Below, piece after piece: positions 8,344 through 45,207 of a stretch of 45,321 bases of DNA. The DNA is taken from assembly GCA_964512625.1 (NCBI GenBank), contig CAZEKG010000005.1, forward strand, positions 1-45,321, read 5' to 3'. The translations under genes were made by a program, and so were the position numbers. The first letter of the stretch is position 1; each line of letters starts with the position of its first letter. The notes beneath the pieces are model-generated. The model saw nothing but the letters and a program-made list of their open reading frames with translations. It was not told the origin of the DNA and ran no database searches. This DNA is from an uncultured Gammaproteobacteria bacterium (GTDB lineage Bacteria > Patescibacteriota > Patescibacteriia > 2-01-FULL-39-33).

Positions 8344-8348
8344 GGTTG

Positions 8349-13793: not shown

Positions 13794-13831
13794 TTTTCCA
13801 ATTTAGTTTTTTAAATTTTAATTTATAATTT

Positions 13832-14296: not shown

Positions 14297-14306
14297 ATTT
14301 AAATAA

Positions 14307-14330
14307 GCGGCAGGATCTCCTGCCGCTTTT
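14307..14330. terminator. intrinsic terminator after the Nudix gene
   Basis: GCGGCAGG-ATCT-CCTGCCGC followed by TTTT. Confidence 0.7.
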
Positions 14331-14722: not shown

Positions 14723-14736
14723 TACTACCCCGTATC

Positions 14737-15435
14737 TTAAACAAACTGACTAATAAAATAAATCGTGGCCGTCTCCGCCCTTAAAATCCTTAAGCCAAGG
14801 CTGACCGGTAAAATCCCTGAACGGCTCGCCAAAGAAACTTCCGCATCCTCATATCCGCCTTCCGGACCGACGAAAAGATGGACTTCTTCGGCGTTAATAT
14901 TGGGCGTATTTTTCATTTCTTTTTCAAAAGCGATATATTTATGGCCCGCTGACTCCTCCGCTAACTTAACTGCTTCGGGAAAGCCGATAGCCGGCGCCAA
15001 CTCCATCAACTTCGAACCGCCGCATTGCTCCGTCGCCTCCTTAATTATTTCCGAATATCTTTTCTGCTTAGCGGGCGTAATACCTCGAACGATTGAGCGC
15101 GCCGAAATAACCGGAATGAATAATGAAACTCCCAGCTCTGTCGCTTTTTGAACTAATAAATCCATTTTTTCGCCCTTAAGTAAGGATTGATAAAGGACGA
15201 TCTTATTCTTCAATTCACGACGACCAAGATGGCGATCAATTATTAGGAACCGCGCCTCTTCTTTTTTAAGATCAATCAGCTGAGAAACATACTCAAACCC
15301 GGATCCTTCAAAAACAATAAAACGCTCCCCTTCCTTGGCGCGCAAAACCTTAATTAACTGATTGATTATAACTTTATCCCGGCAAACGACATAATCGCCG
15401 TGAAAGGCGGCCTTCTCAATATAGAAACGGTGCAT
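14737..15435 (-). CDS. rsmE: 16S rRNA (uracil1498-N3)-methyltransferase
   Basis: Starts MHRFYI. C-terminal VGPEGGYEDAEV motif typical of RsmE. 232 aa. Confidence 0.8.
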   Translation of the reverse strand: MHRFYIEKAAFHGDYVVCRDKVIINQLIKVLRAKEGERFIVFEGSGFEYVSQLIDLKKEEARFLIIDRHLGRRELKNKIVLYQSLLKGEKMDLLVQKATELGVSLFIPVISARSIVRGITPAKQKRYSEIIKEATEQCGGSKLMELAPAIGFPEAVKLAEESAGHKYIAFEKEMKNTPNINAEEVHLFVGPEGGYEDAEVSLASRSGILPVSLGLRILRAETATIYFISQFV

Positions 15436-31784: not shown

Positions 31785-34700
31785 TTAGCCGAAAATATCT
31801 TCTTTTGCTACCTTTTTGCCTGATTTTACGCTATTTATCTTAACTGTTTCCTCGATTTCTTTTTTAATCTCCGGGGCTTGCTCTTTAACTTCTTCTCTCG
31901 ACTCGACTAAAGGGGTTGAACTAATTTCTTGTTCAGCTTCTTTTTTAACTTCCAAAGACGATTCTGACTTGTCTAAAGCCGGCAACTCGGCTGGCTGGCC
32001 GCCTTTTTTGAGTAAGATATCCTGTTTGATTACTTCATCGTGGCCTCGTTTCGTCAAGTCAATATTATTAGATTTATACTGATCGTAGCCCGGCTTTTCA
32101 GCTGTTAAATAGTAAACACTATTACCCACTAAGAAGCCGTAACGGCCTTTTTTATCCGTTACGAATGATTCTAACATACGATCATACTCGGGAGCAAAAA
32201 TCCTGGCGACAGCGTAAGGCAAAGGCTTGCCGGTTTTCTCATCATAAACAACTCCCCAACTACTCGGGACTTTCTTATCCGCCAAACGCTTAAAGAGAAA
32301 ATAAAGAGCAATATGAAGGACGAGAAGGCCGAAAGTATGATAGCGAGGCGTGATTAAGAAAGAGATCAAACCGATCGTCGGACCAATAAGAATAACTCGC
32401 TTGCGCCATTTAACCTTATTATTCTCCTTAATGATTTCTTTATCCGTCACCTTCTTATCTTCCTGGTCAACTGGAATATTAGCGACGATAGCGCCAGTCG
32501 AATTTTCCATAACAGTAATTTTTCCGCCATGATAGAGATCGGCGAATTTCGAATCTTCTTTGGCGTTAGCCATAATCTTGGAAGGGAACTCAAAACCCCG
32601 CTTTATAACTTCGACTCGATATTCGCCAGGACCGACTAAGAAAATATAACGGCCTTGATGATCAGTAACCCGGGATTGGAGCAATTTATCGGTTTTTAAA
32701 TCATAAATGCGGACAACGGCGAGATCAATCGGCATTTTAGTCAAAGAATTATAAATGACTCCCCAACCTTTACGCTTCTTTCTCGTAAACCAAGCGAAAG
32801 GCTCAGTAAAAAAGTATTGAAAAAAGTACCAAAAGTTCCACCAAGGCGTGGCTGTCGCGGTACTAACTAAAGTAACCGCCGCAACACCGGGAGCGACATA
32901 GCTAGAGTTGGCTTTTTGCACCTCCGGATTATCAATAACCTGATCTTTAATCAGTTGAGCCGTCTTGCCGGGATTAGCGATCAAAGGAGCTAGGCTACTA
33001 GTTAAGTCGCCGAGATTTTTCGAGTTTAAAATCTCTTCGATTTTAATAATCGGCGAAGCTTCCAAACCGATATTGAAATTAATTACCTTATTATTAACAT
33101 TAAAGCTAGCCGTCTTTAGAGTTTCATAATCATCCTTAGAGGCGGAAATAAAATATTGGCCGTTAGGTACCATAGCGCCATAAAGACCGTTAGCATTTGA
33201 AGAGAGTGCATCATTAACTAAAACCGCGCCGCCGCTCTCAACCCGATAAAGGGAAATCTTAACGCCAGCGAGCGGCTGATTAGTTTTCCGATCATAAACT
33301 CGCCCTAAAGGCAAGACTTTCAACTTCCACGATCTAACAGCTTCCGTTTTATCCTGATAAACGGTACTAACATACAAGCTATAGCCATCAAGATTTTTAT
33401 TAACCGTAATACTGCCTAGATAATTATTGCTTTGATTGGAAAGGGATAAGAAATAAGTTTTACCGGCGACTTGAAGCCCAATAACCGAAACTGGCTTGAT
33501 TAATGAGTCGCGCGGTACGCTGGCGATTAAATCATTGCCCTCGAGGACATTTAAAACATCCTGGCTATCGGGATTAATAGCAAGATTGCCATTATTAGTT
33601 AGAAAATCAGCCTTGGTCTCAACCGCCGTAGCTCCGCAAGTCTCACATAATTCTTTCGGTTTCTCTTCAAGCTTAGGAATTATCTCATCAGTTGTCGTCG
33701 TTTTCTCTTCCTGGCCAAGAGGAATAGAAACAGCACAACCGCAACTCAGCGACTTACCACCATCATAAATGGTAAAAAGAGAATAACTGTAAACCTGATT
33801 ATTATTCAAGCCAGTATCAGTAAAACTACTAGCGCTACCCGAGTAAGACGGACTGCCGGCGCCGATACTGCTAACACAACTATCTGATTTTCTTAAAGTT
33901 ATTTTTTCAAAATTAAAATCATTCTCCGGATTGGTCCAACTAAGCCTAACTTGCTTATCGCCACTCTCCGCTAAGAAATTACTCGGGCACTTCGCTTCAG
34001 CTTGTACTGCCGTCTTTACCGACAAACAAGTTCCTAATGAATATTCCGCGTAACCGCTGCGAGTAAAAATTTTATAGTTATAAACTTGATTATTATTCAA
34101 GCCAGTATCAGTAAATGATTTATTCTTATTGGTCGAAAGTAAAACGCCATTTAATAAGCCCGCCTTAGAACAATCATTTACTGTTACTCTTATCAAGCGA
34201 GCTAAGCCAAAAATAAAATCAATAGCCGGATTATTAGCCGGATTCGTCCAATTCAAAGTTACTTGCTTATTACCACCTACCGCCGAAAAATCACCAATTT
34301 CCGGAATATTTCTCATAGTTTCCGCATAAGCGCCCGAAGAATAGACGCCGAAACTGTTATTCAAGCAAACCGTATATTCCACTTTAGTTCTTAAGGCAAT
34401 GGAACTTTCAGCATTAATAGATTCAGAAATTCCGGCTGCCTTAGCCGTAGCGCTTTGATAAACTTTCTCATTAGCGCTTGGGCAAGTCGTCCGTCCCTTA
34501 TAAATAGTTACGCCGGCGATATCGGAATAATTGGGGTAAGTTAAATCAATAACTGAGCCTTTATTGACCGGTCGAGCCGAAGTCTCAGCATTAGGCATAA
34601 GACAATCCGTCCTAAAAGTATTGGTCGGCGACTCAGCGTTTAAAGCATTAGCGTTAGCCTTGATTAAAAAAGTATACGCTGATTGTAACTCTAAATTATT

Positions 34701-35189
34701 TAAAGTTACTAAATGGGAAGCCTGGGCATTAGTAATAGCAATTTCCGTTTTATTGTTCGGCGAAGCGGATAACCAATAAACGATCGAGCCGACTGTCGAA
34801 ACACTAATATTATTCGGAGCTTGGACGGTACGCCAGCCAATTTGGACACTACTGCAATTAGCCTGAGCCGTTATTTGATCGATCGTTAAAGCTCCTTGGC
34901 TTTCCGTTTGGCAGGCGCTATTACAGCCGTCTCCATCATTTCTATTGCCGTCATCGCAGGCTTCGCCCGTTTCAACGATACTATTGCCACAAACCGCCGT
35001 TTCTCCTCCCTCGCCGCCGCCACAGCCGACGCAAGGAGGCGTTGTCGTACTAGCGACTGTCGCCGTAATGCTTAAGCCGGAATTCTCCGTCGAGGCTGAA
35101 GAAAAATTATAAAGAAAAAAAACAAAACTGGTTGCTAAAGAAACAACCGCTAAAAAATAAAATTTATTTTTATTATTTCTTATCATCAC
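31785..35189 (-). CDS. giant secreted/membrane protein with a cysteine-rich repeat, Fn3-like repeats and carboxypeptidase-regulatory-like domains
   Basis: 1134 aa with a signal/anchor. CGNSIVETGEACDDGNRNDGDGCNSAC matches the Myxococcus-type Cys-rich repeat (DUF4215-like). Repeated ...LNNNQVY.Y..F modules. GRYIFLVGPGEYRVEV and GRYGFLVGNSVYYLTAEKPGY are CarboxypepD_reg-like. Internal TM helices. Confidence 0.6.
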   Translation of the reverse strand: MMIRNNKNKFYFLAVVSLATSFVFFLYNFSSASTENSGLSITATVASTTTPPCVGCGGGEGGETAVCGNSIVETGEACDDGNRNDGDGCNSACQTESQGALTIDQITAQANCSSVQIGWRTVQAPNNISVSTVGSIVYWLSASPNNKTEIAITNAQASHLVTLNNLELQSAYTFLIKANANALNAESPTNTFRTDCLMPNAETSARPVNKGSVIDLTYPNYSDIAGVTIYKGRTTCPSANEKVYQSATAKAAGISESINAESSIALRTKVEYTVCLNNSFGVYSSGAYAETMRNIPEIGDFSAVGGNKQVTLNWTNPANNPAIDFIFGLARLIRVTVNDCSKAGLLNGVLLSTNKNKSFTDTGLNNNQVYNYKIFTRSGYAEYSLGTCLSVKTAVQAEAKCPSNFLAESGDKQVRLSWTNPENDFNFEKITLRKSDSCVSSIGAGSPSYSGSASSFTDTGLNNNQVYSYSLFTIYDGGKSLSCGCAVSIPLGQEEKTTTTDEIIPKLEEKPKELCETCGATAVETKADFLTNNGNLAINPDSQDVLNVLEGNDLIASVPRDSLIKPVSVIGLQVAGKTYFLSLSNQSNNYLGSITVNKNLDGYSLYVSTVYQDKTEAVRSWKLKVLPLGRVYDRKTNQPLAGVKISLYRVESGGAVLVNDALSSNANGLYGAMVPNGQYFISASKDDYETLKTASFNVNNKVINFNIGLEASPIIKIEEILNSKNLGDLTSSLAPLIANPGKTAQLIKDQVIDNPEVQKANSSYVAPGVAAVTLVSTATATPWWNFWYFFQYFFTEPFAWFTRKKRKGWGVIYNSLTKMPIDLAVVRIYDLKTDKLLQSRVTDHQGRYIFLVGPGEYRVEVIKRGFEFPSKIMANAKEDSKFADLYHGGKITVMENSTGAIVANIPVDQEDKKVTDKEIIKENNKVKWRKRVILIGPTIGLISFLITPRYHTFGLLVLHIALYFLFKRLADKKVPSSWGVVYDEKTGKPLPYAVARIFAPEYDRMLESFVTDKKGRYGFLVGNSVYYLTAEKPGYDQYKSNNIDLTKRGHDEVIKQDILLKKGGQPAELPALDKSESSLEVKKEAEQEISSTPLVESREEVKEQAPEIKKEIEETVKINSVKSGKKVAKEDIFG

Positions 35190-36123
35190 TATTTACCTTC
35201 TTAGATCGCCGATTAAAAATTAAATTGAAAAGTAAAAGGAAAGCAACCGCTAAAAAAATGACTGATAATTCTATCGGCCAAACGAAAAAGCCGTAAGGCG
35301 CTGAGCTAAGCCTTTGATGCGACTCGCCGTAATCAAGCTCTAAGACAGCGGAAAGCCTTAGCCAAGAAAAATATTTAATTTGGGAAATGAGCTGATTAAA
35401 AAAGCCCCGATCTTCCCGATCCCAAGAGATCAAGAATTCCTTTTCGCTGGAAGGAAGGATAATACCGCCGTCGGGATTGAAAGGAACCGTATCGACGACT
35501 TGGCCGAAAATATTCTTTATGACTAATAAGCCTTTAGGTTTTAAATGAACATTGCCTTCATTTTTTAAATCAGTTCTAAAACTAATCGGAAAATTGAAAT
35601 AAGCGACCGATCGCTTTAAAGGCTCTAAGCCGGATGAGGACATCTTCTCCGTTACTTCGCCATTAACCCTTAAAAAAACTAGGACGCCAATCCGCGAAGA
35701 AACGCCAAGATTCGCCTTATTAGCCGAGGGCTCCTTGCTTTCCCACATAATCGCTAAGTAATAACCGCCGACATTGGCCGTTTTCGGAATGCTGATTAAA
35801 ACGGGAACGGTTTTTTTCTCTCCCGGTTTTAGAATTAAGGAATCCTGAGGCAAGGTCAGCCAAGAAAGGTAAGCCGAACCGAAAGACGGCGTTATTTCCG
35901 CCTGATAGCCGTTACTTTTCGGCTTAAAGACTTCCACCTTGGAAGTTAAAAAAACATCTTTATCCGTTTCATTAAAAAGCGTCAGCGAATAGGACGCGGT
36001 TTCTCCAGGATTTATTTCCGCCTCGAGTTTTAGCGGGCTAACAGTCGCGGCCGAAGCGGAAAAAGCAGGCAAAAGGAAAAAGGTTAGGAAAAGAAAAATC
36101 TTAATTTTATTCAGTATAGTCAT
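35173..36123 (-). CDS. cell-surface protein with C-terminal membrane anchor (DUF916/DUF3324-like architecture)
   Basis: Signal peptide, two beta-sandwich-like halves, and a C-terminal TM segment followed by a basic tail (NRRSKK). Overlaps the downstream giant gene by 17 nt. Confidence 0.5.
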   Translation of the reverse strand: MTILNKIKIFLFLTFFLLPAFSASAATVSPLKLEAEINPGETASYSLTLFNETDKDVFLTSKVEVFKPKSNGYQAEITPSFGSAYLSWLTLPQDSLILKPGEKKTVPVLISIPKTANVGGYYLAIMWESKEPSANKANLGVSSRIGVLVFLRVNGEVTEKMSSSGLEPLKRSVAYFNFPISFRTDLKNEGNVHLKPKGLLVIKNIFGQVVDTVPFNPDGGIILPSSEKEFLISWDREDRGFFNQLISQIKYFSWLRLSAVLELDYGESHQRLSSAPYGFFVWPIELSVIFLAVAFLLLFNLIFNRRSKKVNSDDKK

Positions 36124-36142
36124 CTTAATTTCAAACAGTCAT

Positions 36143-36847
36143 TTAAAAGTTAGCGATCGCCGTATAAGTAATATTGGTTGCGTATGATCCTGAGGGCTGG
36201 CTAGCCGAAATATTAGCGATATAATTGATATTAAATACGGCCTCGGAAGACATTGATCCCGAGGAAGAGATGATTGGCGAAGAGGAATCAAAAGCGTAGC
36301 GAGCAGGATTATTATATGGCGCTTGGGAAGCGGCCGAACTGTCTCCTGAGCTATAAATAGCATTAAAACCGAATTGGGAAGTTCCCGGCAGTGAGCTGGT
36401 TGCCGTCGCGCCGATAGCGGTTATCTGATTAACCCCGGAAGTCAAGGTAGCGCCGGAAAAAGTAAGACTGACACCAGTAACACTATTACTTCTTAAAGTT
36501 AAGGTATGGGAAGCAGTCGCGGCAGTAGCCTCGCTTAAAGTTCCGAGATTCAAGCTTGATCCGCCAAGGCTTAGAGTTAAAATTGGCACATCATTTTCCA
36601 TTTCCCGATAGCCGGCTTTAACTGAATAATTCGTCGAAGAAGACGCTCCAGCAACTGACTCGCCAACCGTATCAGAAATTGAGAAATTAGAGGAGGAAGC
36701 GACTTCCCCTCCGCCAATAGAAACCGTATCCGCCCAAATTTGATAACCGCTATTAGAAGTCATAGCGGCGAATAAAAAATTTATCGGTATAACCGATAAG
36801 AGGCAGGCTAAAATAAAAATTGAGAAAATGGTTTTTCGGCTTTTCAT
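36143..36847 (-). CDS. Ser/Thr-rich secreted surface (WxL/pilin-like) protein
   Basis: Signal peptide and low-complexity S/T/G/A-rich beta-strand repeats. The C-terminal ...SGSYATNITYTAIANF resembles surface-subunit termini. First gene of the surface locus. Confidence 0.5.
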   Translation of the reverse strand: MKSRKTIFSIFILACLLSVIPINFLFAAMTSNSGYQIWADTVSIGGGEVASSSNFSISDTVGESVAGASSSTNYSVKAGYREMENDVPILTLSLGGSSLNLGTLSEATAATASHTLTLRSNSVTGVSLTFSGATLTSGVNQITAIGATATSSLPGTSQFGFNAIYSSGDSSAASQAPYNNPARYAFDSSSPIISSSGSMSSEAVFNINYIANISASQPSGSYATNITYTAIANF

Positions 36848-37019: not shown

Positions 37020-37065
37020 TTTTCCTCAAGTTTCACAATCAAGGAGATTGCGAAGCTAATTGGAA
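37020..37065. repeat. left copy of the 46-bp imperfect direct repeat flanking the island
   Basis: TTTTCCTCAAG-N3-CACAA-N14-AAGCTAATTGGAA. The right copy at 44382-44427 has an identical 11-mer, 5-mer and 12/13-mer at identical spacing. Confidence 0.6.
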
Positions 37066-37097
37066 GGAGGAGCAACAAGTACCACTTGCGCTCCTCC
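37066..37097 (-). terminator. strong hairpin immediately after the last island gene
   Basis: GGAGGAGC-AA-CAAG...CTTG-C-GCTCCTCC lies 10 nt downstream of the stop at 37107 and abuts the left direct repeat. The U-tract is weak (UUCCAAUU). Confidence 0.45.
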
Positions 37098-37106
37098 GTG
37101 AAACCA

Positions 37107-37703
37107 CTAAATAACGGCGGAGGACAAAACCCGCTCTTGACGGCTCGTCCTCTCATTAATCGAGGTGAGGGCGCTATCCGGCACATCCGGAATTCGCGTC
37201 TCGCCACGCTCTTGAGTCGCCGAGTAGTATCCACTCTCGGCAATCCACGCGATCAACTCTATCATTCCAGCACCACTCGCGCGGGGTAGAACCTCAAGAG
37301 CTGTAAGCGCCGCCGGTGAGAAGGAGGATCCGAAGATCTTGTCGCCACAGAAGTAGTACCAGCTGTAGCCGGATACTACCACGACGCCTTTCGCCCGAAG
37401 AATCGCTTCACCCTGCTCGCGTGGCAAGGCATTCCCCGCGCGAAGTTCTTGCGCCTCGGCCGCGATGGTTTTTTTCACTTCCATCATCAAGTCGAGCGGC
37501 GCGAACTCTGCGCGGTACATTTGGCGATTATTCTTGTCGACTTTCCCGTCAACTGGAATCAACCGCACCCTCACCACCTCGTCCGGCTTGACCAAACGAG
37601 GCATAAAAACTATTGACCGATTGTAAGAGGAGATGCACTGTCCGGTCTCCTCGTATTTCCCTCCGCGCTCGGCGCGGAGGGTTGCAACGATTTGTTCCGT
37701 CAT
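37107..37703 (-). CDS. hypothetical protein (198 aa), possible N-terminal TRAM/OB-like fold
   Basis: AAGGAGG lies 5 nt upstream of ATG 37703 (MTEQIVATL...). The ORF-track extension to 37835 overlaps the vWA gene. SIVFMPRLVKPDEVVRVRLIPV loosely resembles TRAM strands. No confident family. Confidence 0.6.
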   Translation of the reverse strand: MTEQIVATLRAERGGKYEETGQCISSYNRSIVFMPRLVKPDEVVRVRLIPVDGKVDKNNRQMYRAEFAPLDLMMEVKKTIAAEAQELRAGNALPREQGEAILRAKGVVVVSGYSWYYFCGDKIFGSSFSPAALTALEVLPRASGAGMIELIAWIAESGYYSATQERGETRIPDVPDSALTSINERTSRQERVLSSAVI

Positions 37704-37713
37704 GCTACCTCCT

Positions 37714-39336
37714 TTACAAGTTCTCGAACACCGCTGCGGCGCTTTCATCAGTGAACGACGATACACGCTCGACGCGATTGGCGAATTCTCGGACACTTTC
37801 GTCGGAGCTGGAGCCAACGTCGCAGAGGACTGCAAACACGTTGACTTTTAACTTCTCCTTGGTCGCCCGGAACTCACGAAGGAACTCCCTCGAAACCGCG
37901 CACTCGCCGTCAGTGATGAAGGCGATGTCGGCTTTGGTGAGCCCTTCGACGCGGATCGTTTGCATCGCTTCGGACAGCGGACGTTCGAAGTCCGTACCGC
38001 CCGCATCGAGAAACGTCTCCGCGATTTCCAGTATCGCTTCGGCCGACAGCCGACCGCCCTTGTACACCCGGGTTACGTTCAGTGAGGAACGCGATCCGAA
38101 ATGCACCCAAACAAACGACCGCTTCTGGAGTTTGGCATAGTGAGCCATGGCGAGAACCATTGCCTTTGCCCACCAACGCTTCTCTCCGTCCATCGAACCG
38201 GAGCCGTCTTCGCAGACGACGACCGGACCGTGGCCAAGCTTCTTCTTCGCCTGCTCGCCGCGCAGCCGGAGTTCACCGCGAGCCCAGCGCGTGAGCGCCT
38301 TCATGCGGAGTGCCGGATGCGAGATCGAAACAAGCTCGGAGTTAACGGCGCGTTTAATGTCCCGACCCATTTCCGGCATCGTGACACGCACACCCTCTGC
38401 CTTCTCCTTCGACCGGGCCTTGCGAGCCGCGATCTGCCGGAGTCGACCAAGGAGCGCCGCGAACTTGCGCAGAGCTTCGCTTTTCTTCATCCGCTCAAGA
38501 ACCCCGAGAGCTTCGGGAATCCCTTTGCGAACAAGCTCGCCTTCATCGAGGCCCCAAGATTCGAGCGTGTCGGATATCTCCTCCACTTTCTCCTTGGCCT
38601 CTTTCGCGGCGGCGATGCCGACACGAGCGAGTTCACGAAGCTTGTCCACCGCCTTATCGCTTCCGGGTTGCCCCAAAAGCTCCTCGACAACAGACTCGAC
38701 TGCTTGCTTGGCCGCATCCGCTTTGGCTCTCGCCGCAGCAGCGCGACCCGCGTATTGGTCAGCGAGTTCTTGCGCTTCTTCGAGCGACATGCCAGAGCCG
38801 TTGCCGGACTGGTTGCCGCTCTGCCCGCCTTGGGTGGCTTGCGCCGCTTCCGCGAGCATGTTCGCCGCCGAGCTTTCGACCTCTGCCTGTTGGGCTTCGG
38901 CTTCCGCTTCGTCGGCGTCGTCCTGCTTCTGCGCAGCTTCCTGAAGTTTCTCTTGGTCCTTCTCGGACACGTTTTCGAGGACCGATTGACCCATCGTCAA
39001 CGTACCAAGCACGGACTTCAGATCGGAATACTGCGTCTGGGCATGAAGTTGCTCGTAGGTCGATGTCGCCATTGTACCCTTGAGAATCTCACCCCAGTAC
39101 CGGCGATCGGCCGGCAGTTCCTCACGCACCACAGGCGTTTCCGCCCACAGCGCGTGATAAAGATCGCACAGCGATCCTGCGAATCCGGGGAGTCGGCTTT
39201 CGCCTTGCTCCTCGACTTCGCTGATCGCTGGCGCATTCTCGCGATGTCGCAGGAAGCGGAGCGCCGTGAAGGCGTCCGCATCCGTGACGAGGAGCTTTTG
39301 GAGCTCCTGCCGCGCGAGTGTTGGTGCCTTCTGCAT
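37714..39336 (-). CDS. ViaA-like von Willebrand factor A (vWA) protein with acidic/coiled-coil middle region
   Basis: The C-terminal vWA has a MIDAS motif (VVVCEDGSGSMDG, then GGTDF, FITDGE), collinear with my recollection of E. coli ViaA (IVCVDTSGSMGG...GGTD...ISDF). AGGAGG 6 nt upstream of the ATG. Immediately follows the RavA-like gene. Confidence 0.8.
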   Translation of the reverse strand: MQKAPTLARQELQKLLVTDADAFTALRFLRHRENAPAISEVEEQGESRLPGFAGSLCDLYHALWAETPVVREELPADRRYWGEILKGTMATSTYEQLHAQTQYSDLKSVLGTLTMGQSVLENVSEKDQEKLQEAAQKQDDADEAEAEAQQAEVESSAANMLAEAAQATQGGQSGNQSGNGSGMSLEEAQELADQYAGRAAAARAKADAAKQAVESVVEELLGQPGSDKAVDKLRELARVGIAAAKEAKEKVEEISDTLESWGLDEGELVRKGIPEALGVLERMKKSEALRKFAALLGRLRQIAARKARSKEKAEGVRVTMPEMGRDIKRAVNSELVSISHPALRMKALTRWARGELRLRGEQAKKKLGHGPVVVCEDGSGSMDGEKRWWAKAMVLAMAHYAKLQKRSFVWVHFGSRSSLNVTRVYKGGRLSAEAILEIAETFLDAGGTDFERPLSEAMQTIRVEGLTKADIAFITDGECAVSREFLREFRATKEKLKVNVFAVLCDVGSSSDESVREFANRVERVSSFTDESAAAVFENL

Positions 39337-39346
39337 TCTCCACCTC

Positions 39347-40561
39347 CTATGGTTTGACCCGGAATTTCGTCCCGAGCATTGCGTTCACCGTTTCCTGCTT
39401 CTCCCCGTCGAGCTGCTTGCGAAGAACGAGGATTGCAGACTTCTCGTCGCCAGTGACTTCGCCCGAGAGACGGTCGAGCTCGCGCTCGGCGTCTTCGAAC
39501 TGTGCCAGTGCGGCAACGAGTTTGTTGCGATCGCCGCCCTTAGCTTCCGCGACGGTCCCAGCCGGAGCCAGTAAAGTGTCGACCACCTCCTGCGCATCCG
39601 AAAGGGGCGTCCGCGTGAGCGGGGCGACCTTCGCCTTGACGATCGGGATCTGCTCGGGAGTGTCCCAGAGCAGAAATTCGAGTACCCTCAGATCGGTCTT
39701 GCTGACCTTCGAGCGCCCGTCGAGGAGTGCCGATGCCTGAAGGACATCAAACACGCGCCCGAACCGGCGGTCATCTTTCCAGAGCCAGTCGAAACCGGCC
39801 TGGTCTTCGTCGAGAAGCTGCTGGTACAGGTCGAGGACGATCTCGACGATATCGTCCGAAACTTCAACCATCAGCCGCCCCTCGCGCAGCCATTCGATGT
39901 CTTCAAGAGAGATCTTCACTGGAGCAGAAGCCGTGCCGCGAGCCCGGTTGATACGGGCGGTGACGAGCGACTTCTTGCCGGCGCGATCGAGAGAGTTCGC
40001 TACGGCGCGAATGGTCATGCGAGACCACATCGCGCCGAGGTTGCCCTCGGGATCGGGAAGCTCATTGCTGGCCGCGACGAACGCGAGGAGTGGAGTTTTC
40101 ATCATCCGTCCCTCGTGTCGCACGCCGTCACCTTTCGACAGGTCGAGCAGGGTTTGCAGAACTCGAGGCTCCGCTTTCCAGATCTCGTCCGCGAAAAGTA
40201 CGTGTGCGCTTGCAGCGCGTCCCAGTGTGTCGCGCGTGCGAATCGACTTCACACCATTGGCATCGGTCGACTCCTCGATGCGAGTTTCCTCGACGAGGAG
40301 CTGCTCGACCGAAACGATCGTCGGCATGAGAGCGTCGTAGAACACGGCGCCGTTGATATTCCGCGCGACGTCCTGCACTGTGCCGGTCTTGTTGATCCCC
40401 GGCGAACCGAGGAAAAAGGCCGGCCGGCCGGACACTAGCGACAGCATGGTCGCGCGGATCAGGGCCTCGCGGCCGATGTTCCGCACGGCGACGTCTGCCA
40501 CCACATTCGCAACCTTCGGCGCAAGCGCCAGTGCTGCGTCAAGCATATCTTGGCTCATCAT
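39347..40561 (-). CDS. RavA-like MoxR-family AAA+ ATPase (404 aa)
   Basis: Walker A GSPGINKT and Walker B [9 protein letters not shown]. The segments [32 protein letters not shown] and [23 protein letters not shown] closely parallel E. coli RavA as I recall it ([53 protein letters not shown]). Start set at ATG 40561, where AAGGAAAGGA lies upstream and ATGA overlaps the stop of the preceding ORF. Confidence 0.85.
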   Translation of the reverse strand: [404 protein letters not shown]

Positions 40562-40863
40562 TCTGTCCTTTCCTTGCCCGTGGTTATACCGTGGGCGTGG
40601 GTACCCAAGAGCGTCCTCACGGCTTCGTTGAAGATATCCTCGCCATGATCCCGTCGAATCACGGCGAGCCAGCGCGTCGCTTTCGCAACGCCGATTGCCT
40701 GCATACCTCCGACACCGTGCTTTCGCGCGGCAATGGAGGCCAGATCGAAGGCCGAGCTTGGTGACTTGTCCCGCGCGATGCAGACGCACTCCTTGTGGAG
40801 TTCGTCTTGCACCTGCGAGAGCACACCGGCCCGGAGCTGGAGTTCAGCAAGCGGTCGATTCAT
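40558..40863 (-). CDS. hypothetical protein (101 aa), translationally coupled to the RavA-like gene
   Basis: AGGAGG lies 6 nt upstream of ATG 40863. Its TGA stop overlaps the ATG of the AAA+ gene (ATGA). The start overlaps the 3' end of the HD gene by ~20 nt. No family recognised. Confidence 0.55.
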   Translation of the reverse strand: MNRPLAELQLRAGVLSQVQDELHKECVCIARDKSPSSAFDLASIAARKHGVGGMQAIGVAKATRWLAVIRRDHGEDIFNEAVRTLLGTHAHGITTGKERTE

Positions 40864-41416
40864 ATTCAACCTCCTGCAAGAGCTCCTCGATCAGGGGCGC
40901 ACCGTCCGGGTCGATCTCGTGCCACAGCGGGAGAGCTGTCCGAATCTCCGCGAGCTTGCGCTTGCGGAACTCGGGTGGCGCGTGCCGCAGAGTGTTGAGA
41001 TTGTCCAGCCGGTCGGATCGCTTCACGATGACCGCCAAGCGGCCACCGGCGGCCACACGGCGAAGGTAAACCTCATCGGGTTCCTCTTCCTCCTCGTGAC
41101 TCACCGCGCGAACGATCCGCGCCACTCGCTCGCCGAACTGCTCGGCAAGCTCATTTTCCGTCGTGTCCGTGTCCTCGATGGTGTCGTGGAGCACGGCAGC
41201 GGCGAGAAGGTCAGTGGCTTCGTCCTCGCTCAACCGCAACTCGGCAGGAATGTCGTCCTGTTCATAGCGATCGACGAAACGTGCCGCAATTTCTCCCACC
41301 CTCATCAGGTGGTCATACTGCGACTCGCCGCCCGGGCGTTTCTGCCCGTCGTGGACGAGGCCGACAAGGGCAACTGCCTTTGCGACCTTCGGTATGGCTT
41401 TGAGTTCTTTGGGCAT
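40844..41416 (-). CDS. RelA/SpoT-homologue HD-domain hydrolase (small alarmone hydrolase-like, 190 aa)
   Basis: YDHLMRVGEIA plus AAAVLHDTIEDTDTTENELAEQFGERVARIVRAVS match the (p)ppGpp-hydrolase HD pattern (H...LLHDxxEDT...FG..VA.LV.GVT). No synthetase domain is present. AGGAGG 6 nt upstream of the ATG. Confidence 0.8.
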   Translation of the reverse strand: MPKELKAIPKVAKAVALVGLVHDGQKRPGGESQYDHLMRVGEIAARFVDRYEQDDIPAELRLSEDEATDLLAAAVLHDTIEDTDTTENELAEQFGERVARIVRAVSHEEEEEPDEVYLRRVAAGGRLAVIVKRSDRLDNLNTLRHAPPEFRKRKLAEIRTALPLWHEIDPDGAPLIEELLQEVEYESTAC

Positions 41417-41447
41417 TGTTGCCCTCCTTTCGTTAAAACCCTATCAA

Positions 41448-41465
41448 CTTACCAATATTGGCAAG
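41448..41465. promoter_or_regulatory. operator-like 18-bp palindrome upstream of the HD gene
   Basis: CTTACCAATATTGGCAAG (one mismatched pair) lies 32-49 nt upstream of ATG 41416, in a locally AT-rich gap. Confidence 0.35.
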
Positions 41466-41475
41466 CTGAATAAGG

Positions 41476-41509
41476 TCGGCGAGCTGTTAATACCACTCAC
41501 GCTCGCCGA
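41476..41509 (-). terminator. 9-bp-stem hairpin between the 564-aa gene and the HD gene
   Basis: TCGGCGAGC-N16-GCTCGCCGA lies 24 nt after the stop at 41533. The U-tract is weak, so it may be a partial terminator or a processing site. Confidence 0.35.
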
Positions 41510-41532
41510 ACTAAACCTAACCAAAGAACTTC

Positions 41533-43227
41533 TTACCATGGACACCTTTTCGTTTCGGTGTCCGGGATCGTCTTTTCCCGCCCCCATATGAGAGCGTGGG
41601 TGTTCCAGAACTCACGCGACGTGTCGTCGGCGAACTTAATATCCCACGGCTCGGAAGGAGCGCGGCCGCCCACGAACGCGGTCATAAGGATGTAAGCACC
41701 CCCATACGTGCGTTTGAAGCACGCAGTGACTTTGTTCGTCGGCTCAGGATCGCGGTCTTTGACGAAACGCGTGAGTCCGAGCCGATTCGGCCGTTGGGCG
41801 AAAACGATATTGTCGCCCGGGTTGGTATGGACGCAGATCGTCTCTCCGACGATGCGTCCGAATTCAACCTCGTCACAGAAAGTCTCGCGTCCCTCCGAGG
41901 AGATCTGCGAAAGCGTTTCGGTGAGGAGCGGCATGACGCTCTCGTGCGAGGCGACGTGGCTGTCCTTGCGGTCAACCACGAGTTCGCCCGACTTGAGCCG
42001 CCCGACTTGCGGTGTATCCCAGCGGAGCAGGTCGAACGAGACCGGAACGATCTCACCGACCTTCTCCTCGGCACCGGCGACGACAACCGCAGGCCCCGCG
42101 AAGGGATGTACCTCGTCCCACTTGCGATCCCCGAGGGAGGGCTGCGCCCTACCGGATTCGACCGGCCAGAGCATTGCCACCCACGGAGCACCGGCGCGAA
42201 CGTAGCTGCGCACGATGGTGGCATCCAACCACATCGGGGGACCGTCGTGGGCGAGCACGACGGGCTTCTCAATATCGACCACTGGCGGGGTGACGCCTTT
42301 CAGCATCTCCGCCGTGATAAAACACATTGGCTTGAATTTCACCAATGTGTATTCGGGGAGTTCGAGAACCTCCCACGCGACATTCCCATTCCCGGCACCC
42401 TGCGGCGTCACCTCGGGGATACGGATGTACCCCTTGCTGACGTCGTAGAGTTCGACCGCACCGGAGAGCCGCGCAGCGTAGGCCGAAGCCAAGATCGCCG
42501 CGCGAACATTCCAGATACGGACGACTTCCAGCTTTGCAACCGCAGCGGTAAGCCGCAGCGCGGGCTGGAGGTGATGGGGACGCACGCCCAAGAACGGATC
42601 GTTCTTGTCGACAACATCAAGGCGTCCCACGAGGGTCGCACCGTTGACATTGCACAACATCTCACCTTCGGTCATATCCGCATTACTGCGGATGATTTCC
42701 CTAAGGCGATCGACGACCGCGTTGAGCGTGAGCGACTGGATGGTCTGCCCGCGCTCGAGCCCGCTGATCCGGCCTCGGACGATATTATCGCCCTGGTCGG
42801 GATAGAGCTCGCAGGTGCCATGAAGCACCGAATCGAGCTCGGCGAGTACTCGGACGTCGTTTTGCGTGGCAAACTCATGCCACGCGCTGATCTTTTCGTG
42901 ATCGGACGACAGGATGATGCACCCGTCGCACGCCGCGAAAATCCGGGCATTCTCCGGCGACATAACGCCGCCGGTGTCGACGAGAACGAGCGGTTGCTCG
43001 TTAAAACGGATCGCGTCGACCATCGAGGACACGAAGTCCTCGGAGAACTTGCCCTTTTGGCGAACGACCTGAACCAGGTCTTGATCGCCAAAATTCGACC
43101 AGTGCCACTCCCCATCAGGAGCGGCAAAAGCGAGATAAAACGAATCTGGCGGCAAAAGCCGCATCAGATTCGCCAAAAATACGGACTTCCCCGAATGGGG
43201 TTGTCCACACACTATGATTCGGCGCAT
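41533..43227 (-). CDS. multidomain protein: N-terminal P-loop NTPase, putative Csx3-like domain(s) and an unknown C-terminal domain (564 aa)
   Basis: Walker A GQPHSGKS and Walker-B-like LVLVDTGG. Residues ~285-395 (YTLVKFKP..ITAEMLKGVTPPVVDIEKPVVLAHDGPPMWL....Y.....WVAMLWP) parallel the Csx3 signature as I remember it from AF1864 (FTLIHFEI..IKPEILKEIEIPSVDTRKGVVISGRGPIWL...Y....FVAVYDP). A weaker copy lies at ~190-275. GGGAGGG 4 nt upstream of the ATG. Confidence 0.7.
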   Translation of the reverse strand: MRRIIVCGQPHSGKSVFLANLMRLLPPDSFYLAFAAPDGEWHWSNFGDQDLVQVVRQKGKFSEDFVSSMVDAIRFNEQPLVLVDTGGVMSPENARIFAACDGCIILSSDHEKISAWHEFATQNDVRVLAELDSVLHGTCELYPDQGDNIVRGRISGLERGQTIQSLTLNAVVDRLREIIRSNADMTEGEMLCNVNGATLVGRLDVVDKNDPFLGVRPHHLQPALRLTAAVAKLEVVRIWNVRAAILASAYAARLSGAVELYDVSKGYIRIPEVTPQGAGNGNVAWEVLELPEYTLVKFKPMCFITAEMLKGVTPPVVDIEKPVVLAHDGPPMWLDATIVRSYVRAGAPWVAMLWPVESGRAQPSLGDRKWDEVHPFAGPAVVVAGAEEKVGEIVPVSFDLLRWDTPQVGRLKSGELVVDRKDSHVASHESVMPLLTETLSQISSEGRETFCDEVEFGRIVGETICVHTNPGDNIVFAQRPNRLGLTRFVKDRDPEPTNKVTACFKRTYGGAYILMTAFVGGRAPSEPWDIKFADDTSREFWNTHALIWGREKTIPDTETKRCPW

Positions 43228-43242
43228 GGCGCCCTCCCTTCT

Positions 43243-43677
43243 TTAGGAACCCCATTTCTGACAACCACCCGAATCGGCGGGCTCGAAGTACACGAACTCG
43301 TCGACCTCCGATAAAGTCAACTGCACGCGGCTCTGACTGAGCCGGTCTTTCGTCGCCTCCGCGACACGGATCACCGCATCACGGAAGTCACCGAGCTTTT
43401 CGGGCCCTATGAACTTCGGGTTAGAGTTGCCGGATACTACGGCGATGACCTCGCCGTCCTTCGGGCACCCGAACGAAGTCGGGTACACGACACGGCCCGG
43501 CGTCACCGCCGCGCCAACAAGAATGCCAGAGGCCTTGAATTCCTCCTCCAGCGCCTCACGCCAGGCGTGGGCGACGAGCCCGTCGGCGGTCGTGCCCTCA
43601 GGGAGCCCGTTGTCATGCCCATACCCGGGCACAACGCCAAAAACTGCGGAAAACGCGATCGCGACATTCTTGTTCAT
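43243..43677 (-). CDS. hypothetical protein (144 aa)
   Basis: AAAGGAGAG lies upstream of ATG 43677 (MNKNVAIAF...). The stop is 15 nt before the next gene's ATG. No family recognised. Confidence 0.6.
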   Translation of the reverse strand: MNKNVAIAFSAVFGVVPGYGHDNGLPEGTTADGLVAHAWREALEEEFKASGILVGAAVTPGRVVYPTSFGCPKDGEVIAVVSGNSNPKFIGPEKLGDFRDAVIRVAEATKDRLSQSRVQLTLSEVDEFVYFEPADSGGCQKWGS

Positions 43678-43861
43678 ACTCTCTCCTTTGCCGCATCGAG
43701 CGGCCATTGTTAAAAACCATACCAACGCGCAATTCAATTATTGTACGCTGGATGTGGCGGGCGAGGATTAGAACCAACTAACCTCGCCCCCAAAACCTTT
43801 ACTAGTGTGCCGTGCCACACTAACAACCCAGAACTTCCTCTCTACACGGGAGAGGTGCCGA

Positions 43862-44257
43862 TCAGCCCGCCTTGATGATGCGGGTTACGGCGTACACTTG
43901 CCCGTTCCCGTCGCGAACGGTCCCATCCTTGGGACCGGTGCCAGGAACGAACACGTCGTCCCGGCCGGCGACCTCGGGGCGGCCGGCGATCAGCGCCGAC
44001 ACCAGGTAGACGGTGTCGGGCTGCGGCTCGGGGAGCCCCTCGACCGCGCCGTAGCTGGTGCGATCGTAGACCGCCACTCCGTTGATTGGGGCGAGCGCGC
44101 CGCCGGGCGTCGTCGAGACGCGGGCGGGATTGGGTTTGCCGTCGCTGCCCTTGCGGGCCTCGATGACGAGGTCGGTGGAATCCGGCTCAGCCGCCGTGTT
44201 GGCGGTGTTGATCCGGATCCGCATCGGGTGCGGATTCAGGTTGATAAACGTCGTCAT
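43862..44257 (-). CDS. hypothetical protein (131 aa), first gene of the island
   Basis: AGGAGA lies 7 nt upstream of ATG 44257. MTTFINLNPHPMRI...YLVSALIA...DVFVPG...VRDGNGQVYAV looks like a small conserved beta-rich family that I cannot name. Confidence 0.6.
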   Translation of the reverse strand: MTTFINLNPHPMRIRINTANTAAEPDSTDLVIEARKGSDGKPNPARVSTTPGGALAPINGVAVYDRTSYGAVEGLPEPQPDTVYLVSALIAGRPEVAGRDDVFVPGTGPKDGTVRDGNGQVYAVTRIIKAG

Positions 44258-44381
44258 GGCTTGCTCTCCTTTTTGTGCTTGCCATCATGCTGCGTTCCGC
44301 GCAGCGCGGTTTTAGAAGATCACAAATATTTTGCAACCCCTCCCAAACTTATGAAAATCATAAATTTAGGAGGAATAACAA

Positions 44382-44427
44382 TTTTCCTCAAGCCCCACAA
44401 ACCCATTACTTGCAAAGCCAATTGGAA
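44382..44427. repeat. right copy of the 46-bp imperfect direct repeat flanking the island
   Basis: TTTTCCTCAAG-N3-CACAA-N14-AAGCCAATTGGAA. About 33/46 identical to 37020-37065, with the same internal spacing. Confidence 0.6.
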
Positions 44428-44433
44428 AAACAT

Positions 44434-44580
44434 TTAGCCCGACTGCCGAAGATTATTAGAAAATCCCCGGGCAGCCGAGCCTATATTAGAAAATAATAAT
44501 AGAATTAATATGAATATAAATGCTAAAACTTTTCCTATAAGTAGTTCCCATTCAATTGTCAAAGTCCGTCTTACTCTCAT
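44434..44580 (-). CDS. 48-codon hydrophobic peptide ORF (candidate small membrane protein or type-I-toxin-like)
   Basis: MRVRRTLTIEWELLIGKVLAFIFILILLLFSNIGSAARGFSNNLRQSG has one TM segment. The ATG and the preceding GAGAGG are complementary to an upstream CCAUCCUCU. The ORF ends inside a terminator hairpin. Below the ORF-track cut-off. Confidence 0.3.
   Translation of the reverse strand: MRVRRTLTIEWELLIGKVLAFIFILILLLFSNIGSAARGFSNNLRQSG
44437..44480 (-). terminator. 11-bp-stem hairpin plus U-run, minus-strand specific
   Basis: On the minus strand, GCUCGGCUGCC-N22-GGCAGUCGGGC (two G.U pairs that are C.A mismatches on the plus strand) is followed by UAAAUGUUUUU. Confidence 0.45.
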
Positions 44581-44985
44581 CCTCTCACCATAAGCTCCTA
44601 TAACCTGAGGCCTGATAAAGACATTTCTTTACCTAATTGACTGGTTAGATCGATTAGGTAAATCGTCTCTTTATTAGAAAACGACTGCGCCGTTTAATCT
44701 CTCAAGAGGATGGGTATCCCGCTTAAGCGGGAAGCCATCGAGCTCTTAGGATTAAGCCTTCTTAACACTCATTAAGAAGTTCGCTCTCTTCTAGCGAAAA
44801 CGCGCGAGTGATTTACTTATTCAAGGACTACCTCTCTTCGATCGCAGACCTTGATAAATAATTATTTAAAGTGCATTTCTCCTCTTCGGAGAGCCGGTTA
44901 AGGAAGCGACAAGCTTTTCCCTAACCCGCTCTCCGGCCCGAAGCCGAATAAAAACTCTCTTCGGGCGGAGAGAGTTTTTAATCAT
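44570..44985. ncRNA. hairpin-dense, ORF-free region: candidate structured RNA or long structured leader of unknown class
   Basis: At least ten perfect or near-perfect hairpins, including 44629-44661, 44718-44731, 44757-44779, 44780-44798, 44821-44854 and 44888-44934. A long-range helix pairs 44576-44585 with 44705-44714. No ORF of 60 codons or more on either strand. The strand is unresolved. Confidence 0.4.
44951..44979. terminator. bidirectional intrinsic terminator hairpin
   Basis: AAAAACTCTCT-TCGGGCGG-AGAGAGTTTTT has A/T runs on both sides, so it is terminator-like in either orientation. Confidence 0.6.
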
Positions 44986-45055
44986 AGCTATTTAGTTTTA
45001 CGCCCCTTGGAAAGCTCTCTCCTTCTTTCCTTGGGTCATTTGATCTTACACAAGC

Positions 45056-45084
45056 ATTATAGCATAAGCTTAGCTTTTTGTCAA
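45056..45084 (-). promoter_or_regulatory. perfect consensus sigma70 promoter firing leftwards into the hairpin-dense locus
   Basis: The minus strand reads TTGACA (45084-45079), exactly 17 nt, then TATAAT (45061-45056). Confidence 0.65.
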
Positions 45085-45178: not shown

Positions 45179-45207
45179 TTGACAAGTAAATATCAATAAT
45201 ATATAAT
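45179..45207 (+). promoter_or_regulatory. perfect consensus sigma70 promoter firing rightwards toward the window edge
   Basis: TTGACA (45179-45184), 17 nt, TATAAT (45202-45207). A 31-nt near-perfect inverted repeat (45214-45244) sits at the predicted transcript start. Confidence 0.6.

Follow-up and report, generated by a model that had tools for sequence, protein, structure and literature searches.

We analysed a 45,321-nt stretch of DNA, here called the window (contig CAZEKG010000005.1 of assembly GCA_964512625.1, forward strand; all coordinates refer to the whole window), whose source is labelled an uncultured Gammaproteobacteria bacterium and carries the GTDB lineage Patescibacteriota; Patescibacteriia; 2-01-FULL-39-33. 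Our subject was a block of minus-strand genes that the original prediction had read as a tightly packed five-gene operon, encoding an alarmone-hydrolase-type HD protein, a 101-aa open reading frame (ORF), a RavA-like AAA+ ATPase, a ViaA-like vWA protein and a 198-aa ORF. All five ORFs lie on the minus strand where they had been placed and are translationally coupled. The five genes and their junctions are real, whereas the operon itself comprises eight genes, with three more upstream that encode an Unk_01 protein, an Mvol_0529-family protein and a P-loop-Csx3 protein (g1 to g8 in order of transcription; Table 1). The unit is not five genes but eight that share one island and one conserved upstream promoter/operator-like element, and the five packed genes are the 3' part of a recently imported, ~7.2-kb mobile cassette of Patescibacteria.

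Table 1 Features of the island and its borders, with the evidence for each assignment.
Feature	Coordinates	Strand	Assignment	Basis
Island	37122-44341	minus	horizontally acquired, with all eight cassette genes (g1-g8)	blastn homology end points, GC shifts and GC content at third codon positions (GC3)
Element upstream of g1	44288-44341	minus	promoter-like TTGCAA box, then palindrome AAAACCGCGC-T-GCGCGG..GCAGCA	conserved in other loci
g1	43862-44257	minus	131 aa, Unk_01 family (candidate ring nuclease, sometimes fused to CARF)	PADLOC Unk_01 1.5e-11; phrog_21731 7e-14
g2	43243-43677 (ORF to 43737 from TTG)	minus	144 aa, Mvol_0529 family	PADLOC Mvol_0529-fam 2.7e-19, whole profile covered
g3	41533-43227	minus	564 aa: P-loop NTPase (1-~180), helical linker, Csx3 fold (~280-395), conserved C-terminal domain (~400-564)	PADLOC, AlphaFold2, Foldseek
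g3-g4 spacer	41417-41532	minus	116 nt, GGCGAGC...GCTCGCC hairpin and palindrome I9 (41444-41469)	sequence reading
g4	40844-41416	minus	190 aa, stand-alone RelA/SpoT-type HD hydrolase (small alarmone hydrolase, SAH, architecture)	Pfam HD_4 1.2e-12; phrog_990 1.4e-25
g5	40558-40863	minus	101 aa, small helical protein, conserved KSPS...AKATRWLAVIRRD motif	homologues at same position
g6	39347-40561	minus	404 aa, MoxR-class AAA+ ATPase, RavA clade, without LARA	bpMoxR 5.9e-18, AAA_lid_8 5e-13, AAA_5
g7	37714-39336	minus	540 aa, co-factor with vWA domain and metal-ion-dependent adhesion site (MIDAS), helical N-terminal region and Ala/Asp/Glu-rich linker	VWA_2 9.8e-6, VWA_CoxE 2.2e-5, phrog_24053 6e-54
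g8	37107-37703	minus	198 aa, N-terminal TRAM/OB-like barrel (1-70) and novel alpha/beta domain	AlphaFold2 (predicted local distance difference test, pLDDT, 90.6); Foldseek
Hairpin just 3' of g8	37066-37097	minus	terminator-like extended hairpin GGAGGAGC...GCTCCTCC	sequence reading
Candidate flanking direct repeat TTTTCCTCAAGTTTCACAA	copy A 37020-37038; copy B 44382-44400	unstranded	repeat family D10	repeat search: 84% identity, spacing 7362

Gene content of the island

The borders of the island were set by homology and composition. Homology of the related locus L001 to the window (related loci are numbered with an L throughout), detected by blastn at 76-86% identity, spans positions 44341 to 37122 and ends there, which fixes the transferred segment at 7.2 kb. 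GC content is ~60% within the island compared with ~41% outside, with shifts at ~37050 and ~44300, and the sequence returns to low GC on both sides. GC3 was 0.72 for the island genes versus 0.40 for 14 host genes; the GC jump at the island is a codon-level difference. None of the eight island proteins contains a hydrophobic segment. A nucleotide search of the island against phage genomes returned no match, and Rfam recovered only a tRNA-Leu from the whole window. Long plus-strand ORFs in the island (41596-43314, 38101-39357 and 38147-38944; up to 572 aa) were rejected as genes: these antisense shadows group only with the equivalent antisense frames of other loci, and are a by-product of high GC.

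The junctions of the five downstream genes followed the predicted pattern of translational coupling. The HD gene (g4) starts at ATG 41416 behind AAAGGAGGG and stops at TGA 40846-40844; the 101-aa ORF (g5) starts within the end of the HD gene, at ATG 40863, 20 nt before the HD stop and behind AGGAGG, and its own stop (TGA 40560-40558) shares an ATGA with the AAA+ start codon (ATG 40561-40559). The AAA+ stop (TAG 39349-39347) sits in ATAGGAGGTG, 10 nt before the vWA ATG at 39336, and the vWA stop (TAA 37716-37714) is followed by AGGAGGTAGC and the ATG of the last gene at 37703. A mechanical ORF list also contained longer versions reaching upstream to GTG or TTG codons (480, 242, 164 and 103 aa); the shorter starts have the backing of Shine-Dalgarno sites and of the gene models of homologous contigs (403, 198 and 92 aa). 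The five-gene arrangement is more than chance, because the identical gene order recurs in many independent contigs.

The strongest functional clue comes from the families of the three upstream genes. Unk_01, Mvol_0529 and AAA-Csx3 were first described as families of type III CRISPR accessory genes (PMC6546367), and Unk_01, the family of g1, has been listed as a candidate ring nuclease (PMC12409355); g1 homologues are found in Microcystis, Bacillus and Paenibacillus phages. Residues 1-355 of g3 matched the PADLOC AAA-Csx3 profile (C3a67) at 2.8e-45. We modelled g3 with AlphaFold2 (pLDDT 91) and compared its central domain by Foldseek with Archaeoglobus Csx3/Crn3 bound to cyclic tetra-adenylate (cA4; 6yud), obtaining a template modelling (TM) score of 0.85, a root-mean-square deviation of 2.2 A, 26% identity and a probability of 1.00; the Csx3 fold of g3 is thereby confirmed structurally on the predicted model. 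By Foldseek, the N-terminal domain is similar, at low TM, to P-loop NTPases of either the ParA/MinD/SRP or the kinase type. The C-terminal domain carries strongly conserved Ser, His, Arg, Glu and Trp positions and matches phrog_23674 and jumbo-phage CBB_378; profile searches of Pfam and of PDB sequences with this domain returned nothing significant. The g3 protein is a fusion, whose P-loop (1-175), Csx3-like and C-terminal (405-564) parts are separate genes in other loci. In Roseilinea (Chloroflexi), a distant case, a canonical AAA-Csx3 gene adjoins a type III CRISPR locus. The sole relatives of the g3 C-terminal domain outside Patescibacteria are ~157-aa proteins of Rak2-like jumbo phages, and in Pectobacterium phage CBB (L043, 5953-6426) this relative lies within a tRNA gene cluster, beside an AAA protein and an NT5C nucleotidase.

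The HD protein g4 was of the alarmone-hydrolase type by both profile and motif, as had been predicted. HD_4 covers residues 14-157 of its 190 residues as a single domain, without a synthetase domain; the PDB matches were hydrolase domains of Rel/SpoT, SAH and MESH1 (2e-11 to 1e-4), and the SAH-type motifs HDTIEDT (HDxxED) and DRLDNL (DxxxN) are intact and in register with those of Rel, SAH and MESH1. In size, single-domain build, motifs and best PDB matches, g4 is like SAH/MESH1 and the antitoxins of toxic small alarmone synthetases (toxSAS); it differs from them in that no toxSAS adjoins it and that it lies in an operon with P-loop-Csx3 and MoxR-vWA. The g5 protein had no match in Pfam, PADLOC, PHROGs or a PDB profile search, and its homologues occupy the same cassette position in 13 loci.

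We next describe the AAA+ and vWA pair. Alignment of g6 to the RavA structure 3nbx (4e-28) covered RavA residues 13-302 of 498, that is, the AAA+ module only, and the bpMoxR score was 65 bits against a Pfam threshold of 27. The motifs comprise a Walker A (GSPGINKT) of the RavA-like form GxxGIxK[ST], a Walker B (FADE) and a sensor-1 (ASNE). The expected lack of the LARA region was borne out: g6 has 404 residues, no Pfam match lies past residue 309, and RavA alignments end at ~302 of 498. In g7, the predicted MIDAS is complete, with D377, S379, S381, T448 and D476 invariant in 33 homologues, and the acidic linker is also present (residues 119-262; 22% Ala, 22% Asp+Glu). The VWA_2 and VWA_CoxE matches of g7 fall slightly below the Pfam cut-offs, and the profile of the vWA family found nothing significant among PDB sequences; more than 200 full-length homologues, mostly of Patescibacteria, were found at 48-94% identity, and the named ones come from Patescibacteria metagenome-assembled genomes (MAGs). 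The NCBIfam equivalog scores were 111.9 bits for RavA (cut-off 681) and 40.7 bits for ViaA (cut-off 500), and the ViaA match was confined to the vWA domain. The reading of the two genes as a RavA-ViaA pair therefore goes too far: g6 retains a RavA-clade AAA+ module and lid, but it misses the equivalog cut-off and is no RavA orthologue. Assignments of g7 to TROVE/Ro60, to PrkA-YeaH (a weak DUF444 match, E 0.0035) and to the beta-propeller ternary subsystem were rejected, with no supporting domains in each case.

The 198-aa ORF, which had been described as one of two unknown small proteins, proved to be the minimal form of an invariant third partner of MoxR-vWA. A g8 homologue follows the vWA gene in all Patescibacteria-type loci. 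The family ranges from 198 to 913 aa, with most relatives at 450-913 aa; long relatives consist of residues 1-70, an insertion of ~230 aa, residues ~72-170 and a variable C-terminal extension. It is a small family, with 127 clusters at 50% identity among 1.84 billion representatives. The barrel of g8 matched by Foldseek the TRAM domains of RlmCD/RumA, the S1 domain of NusA and a stand-alone TRAM protein (probability 0.8-0.98, E 0.009-0.03), and the alpha/beta remainder had no structural match by Foldseek. Pfam found nothing in g8, and in nine long homologues nothing beyond one sub-threshold TRAM match, which agrees with the g8 barrel; no effector domain was recognised by Pfam in these nine. 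The search of g8 against phage genomes gave no match. DUF6744, the third partner on plasmids, was compared with g8 and is unrelated.

Recurrence, mobility and regulatory elements

We collected related loci from contigs with exact homologues, from a one-genome-per-species scan, and from phage and plasmid records, called their ORFs and searched these with the eight window proteins. The resulting set holds 26 distinct loci together with L039 and L040, ~28 independent loci in all, nearly all of them from Patescibacteria. The distribution is sporadic, since the species scan yielded only 24 loci among 185,579 species genomes. Most of these 24 belong to Saccharibacteria, Adlerbacteria, WWE3, Doudna-, Harrison- and Paceibacterota; the scan also gave two distant Bacillota and six MAGs labelled Gammaproteobacteria/Pseudomonadales (L027-L031 and L033; third-party assemblies), which means that these MAGs are mislabelled or that the cassette has passed between phyla.

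The triad MoxR-vWA-g8 is invariant: wherever the contig of a Patescibacteria-type locus extends far enough, the three genes adjoin one another in this order. The predicted five-gene order recurs as well, with the complete set in 10 of the ~28 distinct loci, and all eight genes stand in the order of the window in L001 and L039. The HD gene and g5 are facultative, each occurring in roughly half of the loci. In other loci, the upstream slot is occupied by Csx15-like proteins (4/4 members, best 2.4e-7), Csx16/DUF1874-like proteins (2/2, best 2.6e-4), stand-alone Csx3 or Unk_01. One locus without MoxR-vWA (L042) has an Unk_01-like, a g3-like and an HD_4 gene in a row, followed by a gene for a MYG1-type exonuclease. 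This row, together with the variation in gene content, indicates that the cassette is made of two modules: module A, consisting of small ring-nuclease-family proteins, P-loop-Csx3 and HD, and module B, consisting of g5, MoxR, vWA and g8. A scan for CRISPR arrays was negative in the window and all loci, and no cas genes (cas10, RAMP) were found in the window or in the flanking sequence, up to 10 kb, that was fetched for the Patescibacteria-type loci.

Some loci carry additional genes. A protein family of 100-206 aa (c11), absent from the window and without a Pfam or PADLOC match, joins the triad in 12 loci (L006, L012, L016, L018, L019, L025, L026, L028 and L031-L034). L003 has a second g8-like gene (7826-8677; ~245-283 aa) between g5 and MoxR, and L013 a second full-length g3 (13243-14952) downstream of g8.

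The foreign origin proposed for the block was upheld by the GC jump and GC3 contrast, by differing insertion sites and by clustering across assemblies. In nearly all loci the cassette lies 10-20 GC points above its flanks, even in a genome of 29% GC; the exceptions, in which cassette GC matches the surroundings, are a few high-GC Parcubacteria (L003, L009 and L022). The island DNA of the window is 87-89% identical to that of L009, whose flanks are 54-63% GC. The island MoxR falls into a cluster at >=90% identity with proteins of four other assemblies, while RecA, EF-P and FtsK of the host are singletons. Insertion sites vary, lying beside tig/nusA, between fusA and tuf, or beside ruvB, and in the window beside surface-protein genes. 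A large serine recombinase gene directly follows g8 in L001 and L012, and genes for toxin-antitoxin, Fic or HEPN proteins lie near the cassette in several loci. In the window, the direct repeat TTTTCCTCAAG..CACAA (11+5 nt) brackets the island and could be an att site or target duplication, or a chance match. No empty site was found by exact-protein look-up of the flanking host gene or by a metagenome scan for a 24-mer of the host flank, which leaves the repeat as no more than a candidate.

Upstream of the first cassette gene, a palindromic 26-mer, AAAACCGCGCTGCGCGG(A/C)ACGCAGCA (44288-44313, minus strand), is conserved with 0-2 mismatches in L001 (position 4844), L002, L009 (4911) and L039 (4850), loci whose proteins are only 53-94% identical; judged from the sequence, it may be the operator of a regulator. 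Only the last 85 nt of the g1 leader are conserved with other loci. The spacer between g3 and g4 may serve the five genes that follow as an internal promoter or attenuator, and because of its hairpin and palindrome these genes may also be expressed as a sub-operon. The hairpin 3' of g8 has no long U tract, and the consensus scan did not pick it up. A TrmB-like regulator of host-like GC is encoded divergently upstream of the cassette in 12/27 loci, and the contig of the window ends 1 kb upstream of g1, short of the position of this gene.

Further observations concern the same region and the host flanks. The TrmB-like regulator was seen upstream in L003, L009, L013, L018, L022, L024, L025, L027-L029, L031, L034, L039 and L040; it is often preceded by a GNAT-domain protein of 570-970 aa, likewise of host-like GC, and is separated from the cassette by a gap of ~0.9 kb. 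Near the contig end of the window are two perfect, divergent sigma-70 consensus promoters (TTGACA-17-TATAAT; 45056-45084, minus, and 45179-45207, plus), the first of which would transcribe an AT-rich, non-coding leader of ~800 nt with several hairpins (44342-45056) towards the cassette; Rfam assigned this leader upstream of g1 to no family. The window genes flanking the island include those for RecA, FtsK, EF-P and surface proteins. Next to the island on its downstream side (31785-36847, minus) are three host genes whose products are probably surface proteins or secreted, one of 1134 aa with CarboxypepD_reg, fn3 and SpaA-like repeats, and two of 316 and 234 aa with hydrophobic, signal-peptide-like N-termini and no Pfam family. 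A host gene 12 kb from the island (24022-25152, minus) encodes UPF0020 and N6_N4 DNA-methylase domains.

Relatives and comparison with described systems

Relatives of the MoxR-vWA pair were also found on other mobile genetic elements (MGEs). The vWA and MoxR proteins matched the phage families phrog_24053 (6e-54) and phrog_19600 (5.5e-31), and homologous pairs occur in the Bacillus jumbo phage 0305phi8-36 (gp66/gp63), in Moorella phage MTATph1 and in the cochaperone system of Acidianus two-tailed virus (ATV). In the two bacterial phages the pair lies among genes of replication and nucleotide metabolism, without g8, g3 or HD; on large plasmids (Brevibacillus, Streptomyces, cyanobacteria and others), AAA-VWA pairs are neighboured by a DUF6744 protein. 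Given these relatives on phages and large plasmids, this MoxR-vWA clade is typically MGE-borne, with different third partners. The phage and plasmid pairs share with the cassette an adjacent MoxR gene, carriage on MGEs and a homologous vWA protein (26-34% identity over the C-terminal half, with a profile match over nearly the full length); they differ in lacking g8, g3, g5 and HD, in the use of DUF6744 on plasmids and, for ATV, in a role in virion tail development.

Compared with Escherichia coli RavA-ViaA, the cassette has the same co-oriented, adjacent AAA+ and vWA genes, the AAA+ module with AAA_lid_8, the RavA-like Walker A and the complete MIDAS. It differs in lacking the LARA and C-terminal RavA domains, in a likeness to ViaA limited to the vWA domain, in having an obligatory g8 and a nucleotide-signal module, and in being mobile and found mainly in Patescibacteria; LdcI, Nuo and Frd genes were absent from the window and related loci.

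Conceptually, the cassette comes closest to the MoxR-vWA ternary conflict system. Pairs of MoxR and vWA proteins joined by a third component have been proposed as conflict systems (Kaur, Burroughs, Iyer and Aravind 2020, PMC7159879), and a MoxR-vWA system, the Esr pathway of Actinobacteria, was recently shown to act in threat sensing (PMC13622651). The cassette shares with these the constant MoxR-vWA couple with MIDAS aspartates, a third component that is conserved but has variable regions, spread by lateral transfer, and a sporadic distribution. The differences lie in g8, which is TRAM-like, has no Pfam family and is none of VMAP, iSTAND, FtsH or beta-propeller/TPR; in the vWA protein, which carries no effector or propeller; in the hosts, which are episymbiotic unicellular Patescibacteria rather than multicellular bacteria; and in the front end of SAH, P-loop-Csx3, Unk_01 and Mvol_0529, which is undescribed in PMC7159879, where a Csx3 fused to MoxR-vWA ternary systems is recorded once.

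The type III ring-nuclease families form the third point of comparison, through the AAA-Csx3 match of g3 and its superposition on AfCsx3, the Unk_01 assignment of g1, and the Csx15- and Csx16-like proteins of sister loci. Here the cassette differs in the lack of cas10, RAMP and CRISPR arrays in the window and fetched flanks, in the loss of the Crn3 catalytic residues, in the extra C-terminal domain of g3, and in its linkage to MoxR-vWA instead of a type III effector complex. The cassette is neither a RavA-ViaA orthologue pair, nor any of the four described MoxR-vWA ternary subsystems, nor a type III CRISPR accessory locus. None of the papers searched describes the gene combination or a function for it, in agreement with the earlier statement that no described function was known for such a combination.

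Proposed function and rival explanations

Taken together, we tentatively read the cassette as a two-module mobile conflict system that spreads among Patescibacteria and acts in defence or counter-defence, at a probability of roughly 0.45. This reading fits because of the sporadic distribution, the horizontal transfer, the variable third component and the MGE-borne relatives. The gene content, folds, motifs, recurring gene order, horizontal mobility and modularity are shown by the data, and all biochemical activities, the MoxR-vWA-g8 complex and the choice between defence and counter-defence are matters of inference. In described MoxR-vWA systems, the MIDAS of the vWA protein captures a partner peptide, which the AAA+ hexamer remodels or releases using ATP (summarised in PMC7159879). 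By analogy, module B (g5-MoxR-vWA-g8) would operate as a physical complex in which a RavA-clade MoxR hexamer, with the MIDAS vWA protein as adaptor, remodels or releases g8. The TRAM/OB-like barrel of g8 suggests RNA binding, with RNA as either the final target or the cue, and the large insertion and variable C-terminal extension in most g8 relatives look like effector or sensor components.

Module A (Unk_01, Mvol_0529-family, P-loop-Csx3-X and SAH-type HD proteins) would handle a nucleotide signal. That Csx3, Csx15, Csx16 and Unk_01 are interchangeable in one slot suggests that they are functional equivalents, and the SAH-type hydrolase and P-loop NTPase in fixed association with them point to molecules resembling cyclic oligoadenylates or alarmones, or to modified RNA ends. 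Proteins of the Csx3, Csx15, Csx16 and Unk_01 types would bind, and some variants would degrade, a cyclic-oligoadenylate-like ligand, while the HD enzyme would hydrolyse a 3'-pyrophosphorylated nucleotide such as ppGpp, ppApp or a pyrophosphorylated RNA end. Module A could in this way set the threshold of the MoxR-vWA switch or quench the signalling of an opponent. A bolder form of the proposal is a CRISPR-independent second-messenger device, in which interchangeable proteins of the cyclic-oligoadenylate-binding type and an alarmone hydrolase gate MoxR-vWA, with an RNA-binding TRAM-fold protein as output; it would constitute a new immune or anti-immune class, mobile in the ultra-small, episymbiotic Patescibacteria, and we regard it as rather doubtful.

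Several observations weigh against the conflict-system reading. The cassette of the window is neighboured by housekeeping and surface-protein genes and not by a defence island, and no cyclase, Cas10 or CRISPR array that could make a cyclic-oligoadenylate signal lies near it. No known effector domain (nuclease, protease or pore) was found in the eight proteins or the nine long g8 homologues, and a pattern scan of IMG/VR with the vWA profile gave no viral contig with this vWA family. The scores behind two assignments are weak, namely TRAM for g8 (Foldseek E ~0.01) and Csx16-like (2.6e-4). Crn3 activity and cA4 contact need H57, H60, D69 and S44-G45-R46 (PMC7371418); in the window, g3 has R, V, W and A-H-D in their place, and the Crn3 histidines are absent across the P-loop-fused relatives. 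Judging from these replacements, ring-nuclease activity of the Crn3 type is not to be expected of g3, and with the catalytic and cA4-loop residues lost, ligand binding by g3 is uncertain. Finally, the high conservation of the vWA family (>=50% identity) also fits a dedicated cellular chaperone.

Such a chaperone, maturing a host complex (for example ribosome-associated or envelope) in the manner of RavA-ViaA, would agree with RavA being the closest solved structure to the g6 AAA+ module, with the high family conservation and with the position of several loci next to the translation genes tig, nusA and fusA-tuf. That adjacency is expected by chance in small genomes, and a housekeeping role is quite improbable on other grounds: RavA/ViaA scores are far below the equivalog cut-offs, LARA is lacking, only 24 of 185,579 species genomes have the locus, codon composition is foreign, the DNA is near-identical across hosts of very different GC, and insertion sites vary. 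A role in MGE propagation, in which the MoxR-vWA chaperone helps to build some structure belonging to a phage, plasmid or integrative element (compare tail growth of ATV) and the cassette is remnant or cargo, would account for the phrog_24053 and phrog_19600 matches, for the homologues in 0305phi8-36, MTATph1 and ATV and on large plasmids, and for the serine recombinase adjoining the cassette in two loci. We consider it distinctly unlikely, as at no locus is the cassette accompanied by genes for capsid, tail, terminase, replication or conjugation, IMG/VR gave no match, and the phage pairs lie among replication and nucleotide-metabolism genes without g8, g3 or HD.

Surveillance and repair of RNA or tRNA ends is an unlikely alternative. 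The HD enzyme would remove 3'-pyrophosphate from tRNA CCA ends or clear the (pp)pApp that toxic alarmone synthetases produce, the P-loop domain would be a polynucleotide or nucleotide kinase, the Csx3-like and TRAM parts would hold RNA 3' ends, and MoxR-vWA would remodel an RNA-protein complex. Here toxSAS enzymes are relevant, which attack tRNA by pyrophosphorylating its CCA ends and against which SAH-type enzymes are the known counter-measure (10.1101/2021.04.30.441581, PMC11782079), as is the capacity of the Csx3 fold to bind RNA as well as cA4 (PMC7371418). The best matches of the g8 barrel are RNA-binding domains of rRNA/tRNA methyltransferases and the S1 domain of NusA, the g3 P-loop also resembles nucleotide and polynucleotide kinases, the g3-like and HD genes of L042 are followed by the MYG1-type exonuclease gene, and the jumbo-phage homologue of the g3 C-terminal domain sits inside a tRNA gene cluster. 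However, the kinase and TRAM structural assignments are weak, no toxSAS gene was seen nearby, and the loci contain no RNA ligase, RtcB, Hen1, CCA-adding enzyme or repair-type phosphatase. An assembly artefact, a chimeric contig of high-GC and low-GC organisms, would explain the abrupt GC change at both borders and the position of the cassette 1 kb from the contig end; it is so very unlikely as to be negligible, because low-GC sequence resumes on both sides of the island and the same high-GC cassette recurs within lower-GC flanks in >20 independent assemblies.

Patescibacteria account for a large part of bacterial diversity; their genomes are tiny and are regarded as poor in classical defence systems. 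In genomes like these, a 7-kb cassette that is conserved and actively transferred must earn its keep. If the conflict-system reading is true, the cassette would join two themes that have been separate so far, the MoxR-vWA 'thresholding' chaperones and the cyclic-oligoadenylate and alarmone signalling families, outside CRISPR loci, and a second genomic context, open to testing, would be gained for the orphan families Unk_01, Mvol_0529, AAA-Csx3 and Csx15; its compact minimal version, with a 198-aa g8 and eight soluble proteins, would suit biochemical reconstitution. Should that reading be wrong, a new three-gene MoxR-vWA-TRAM module and its distribution are still defined.

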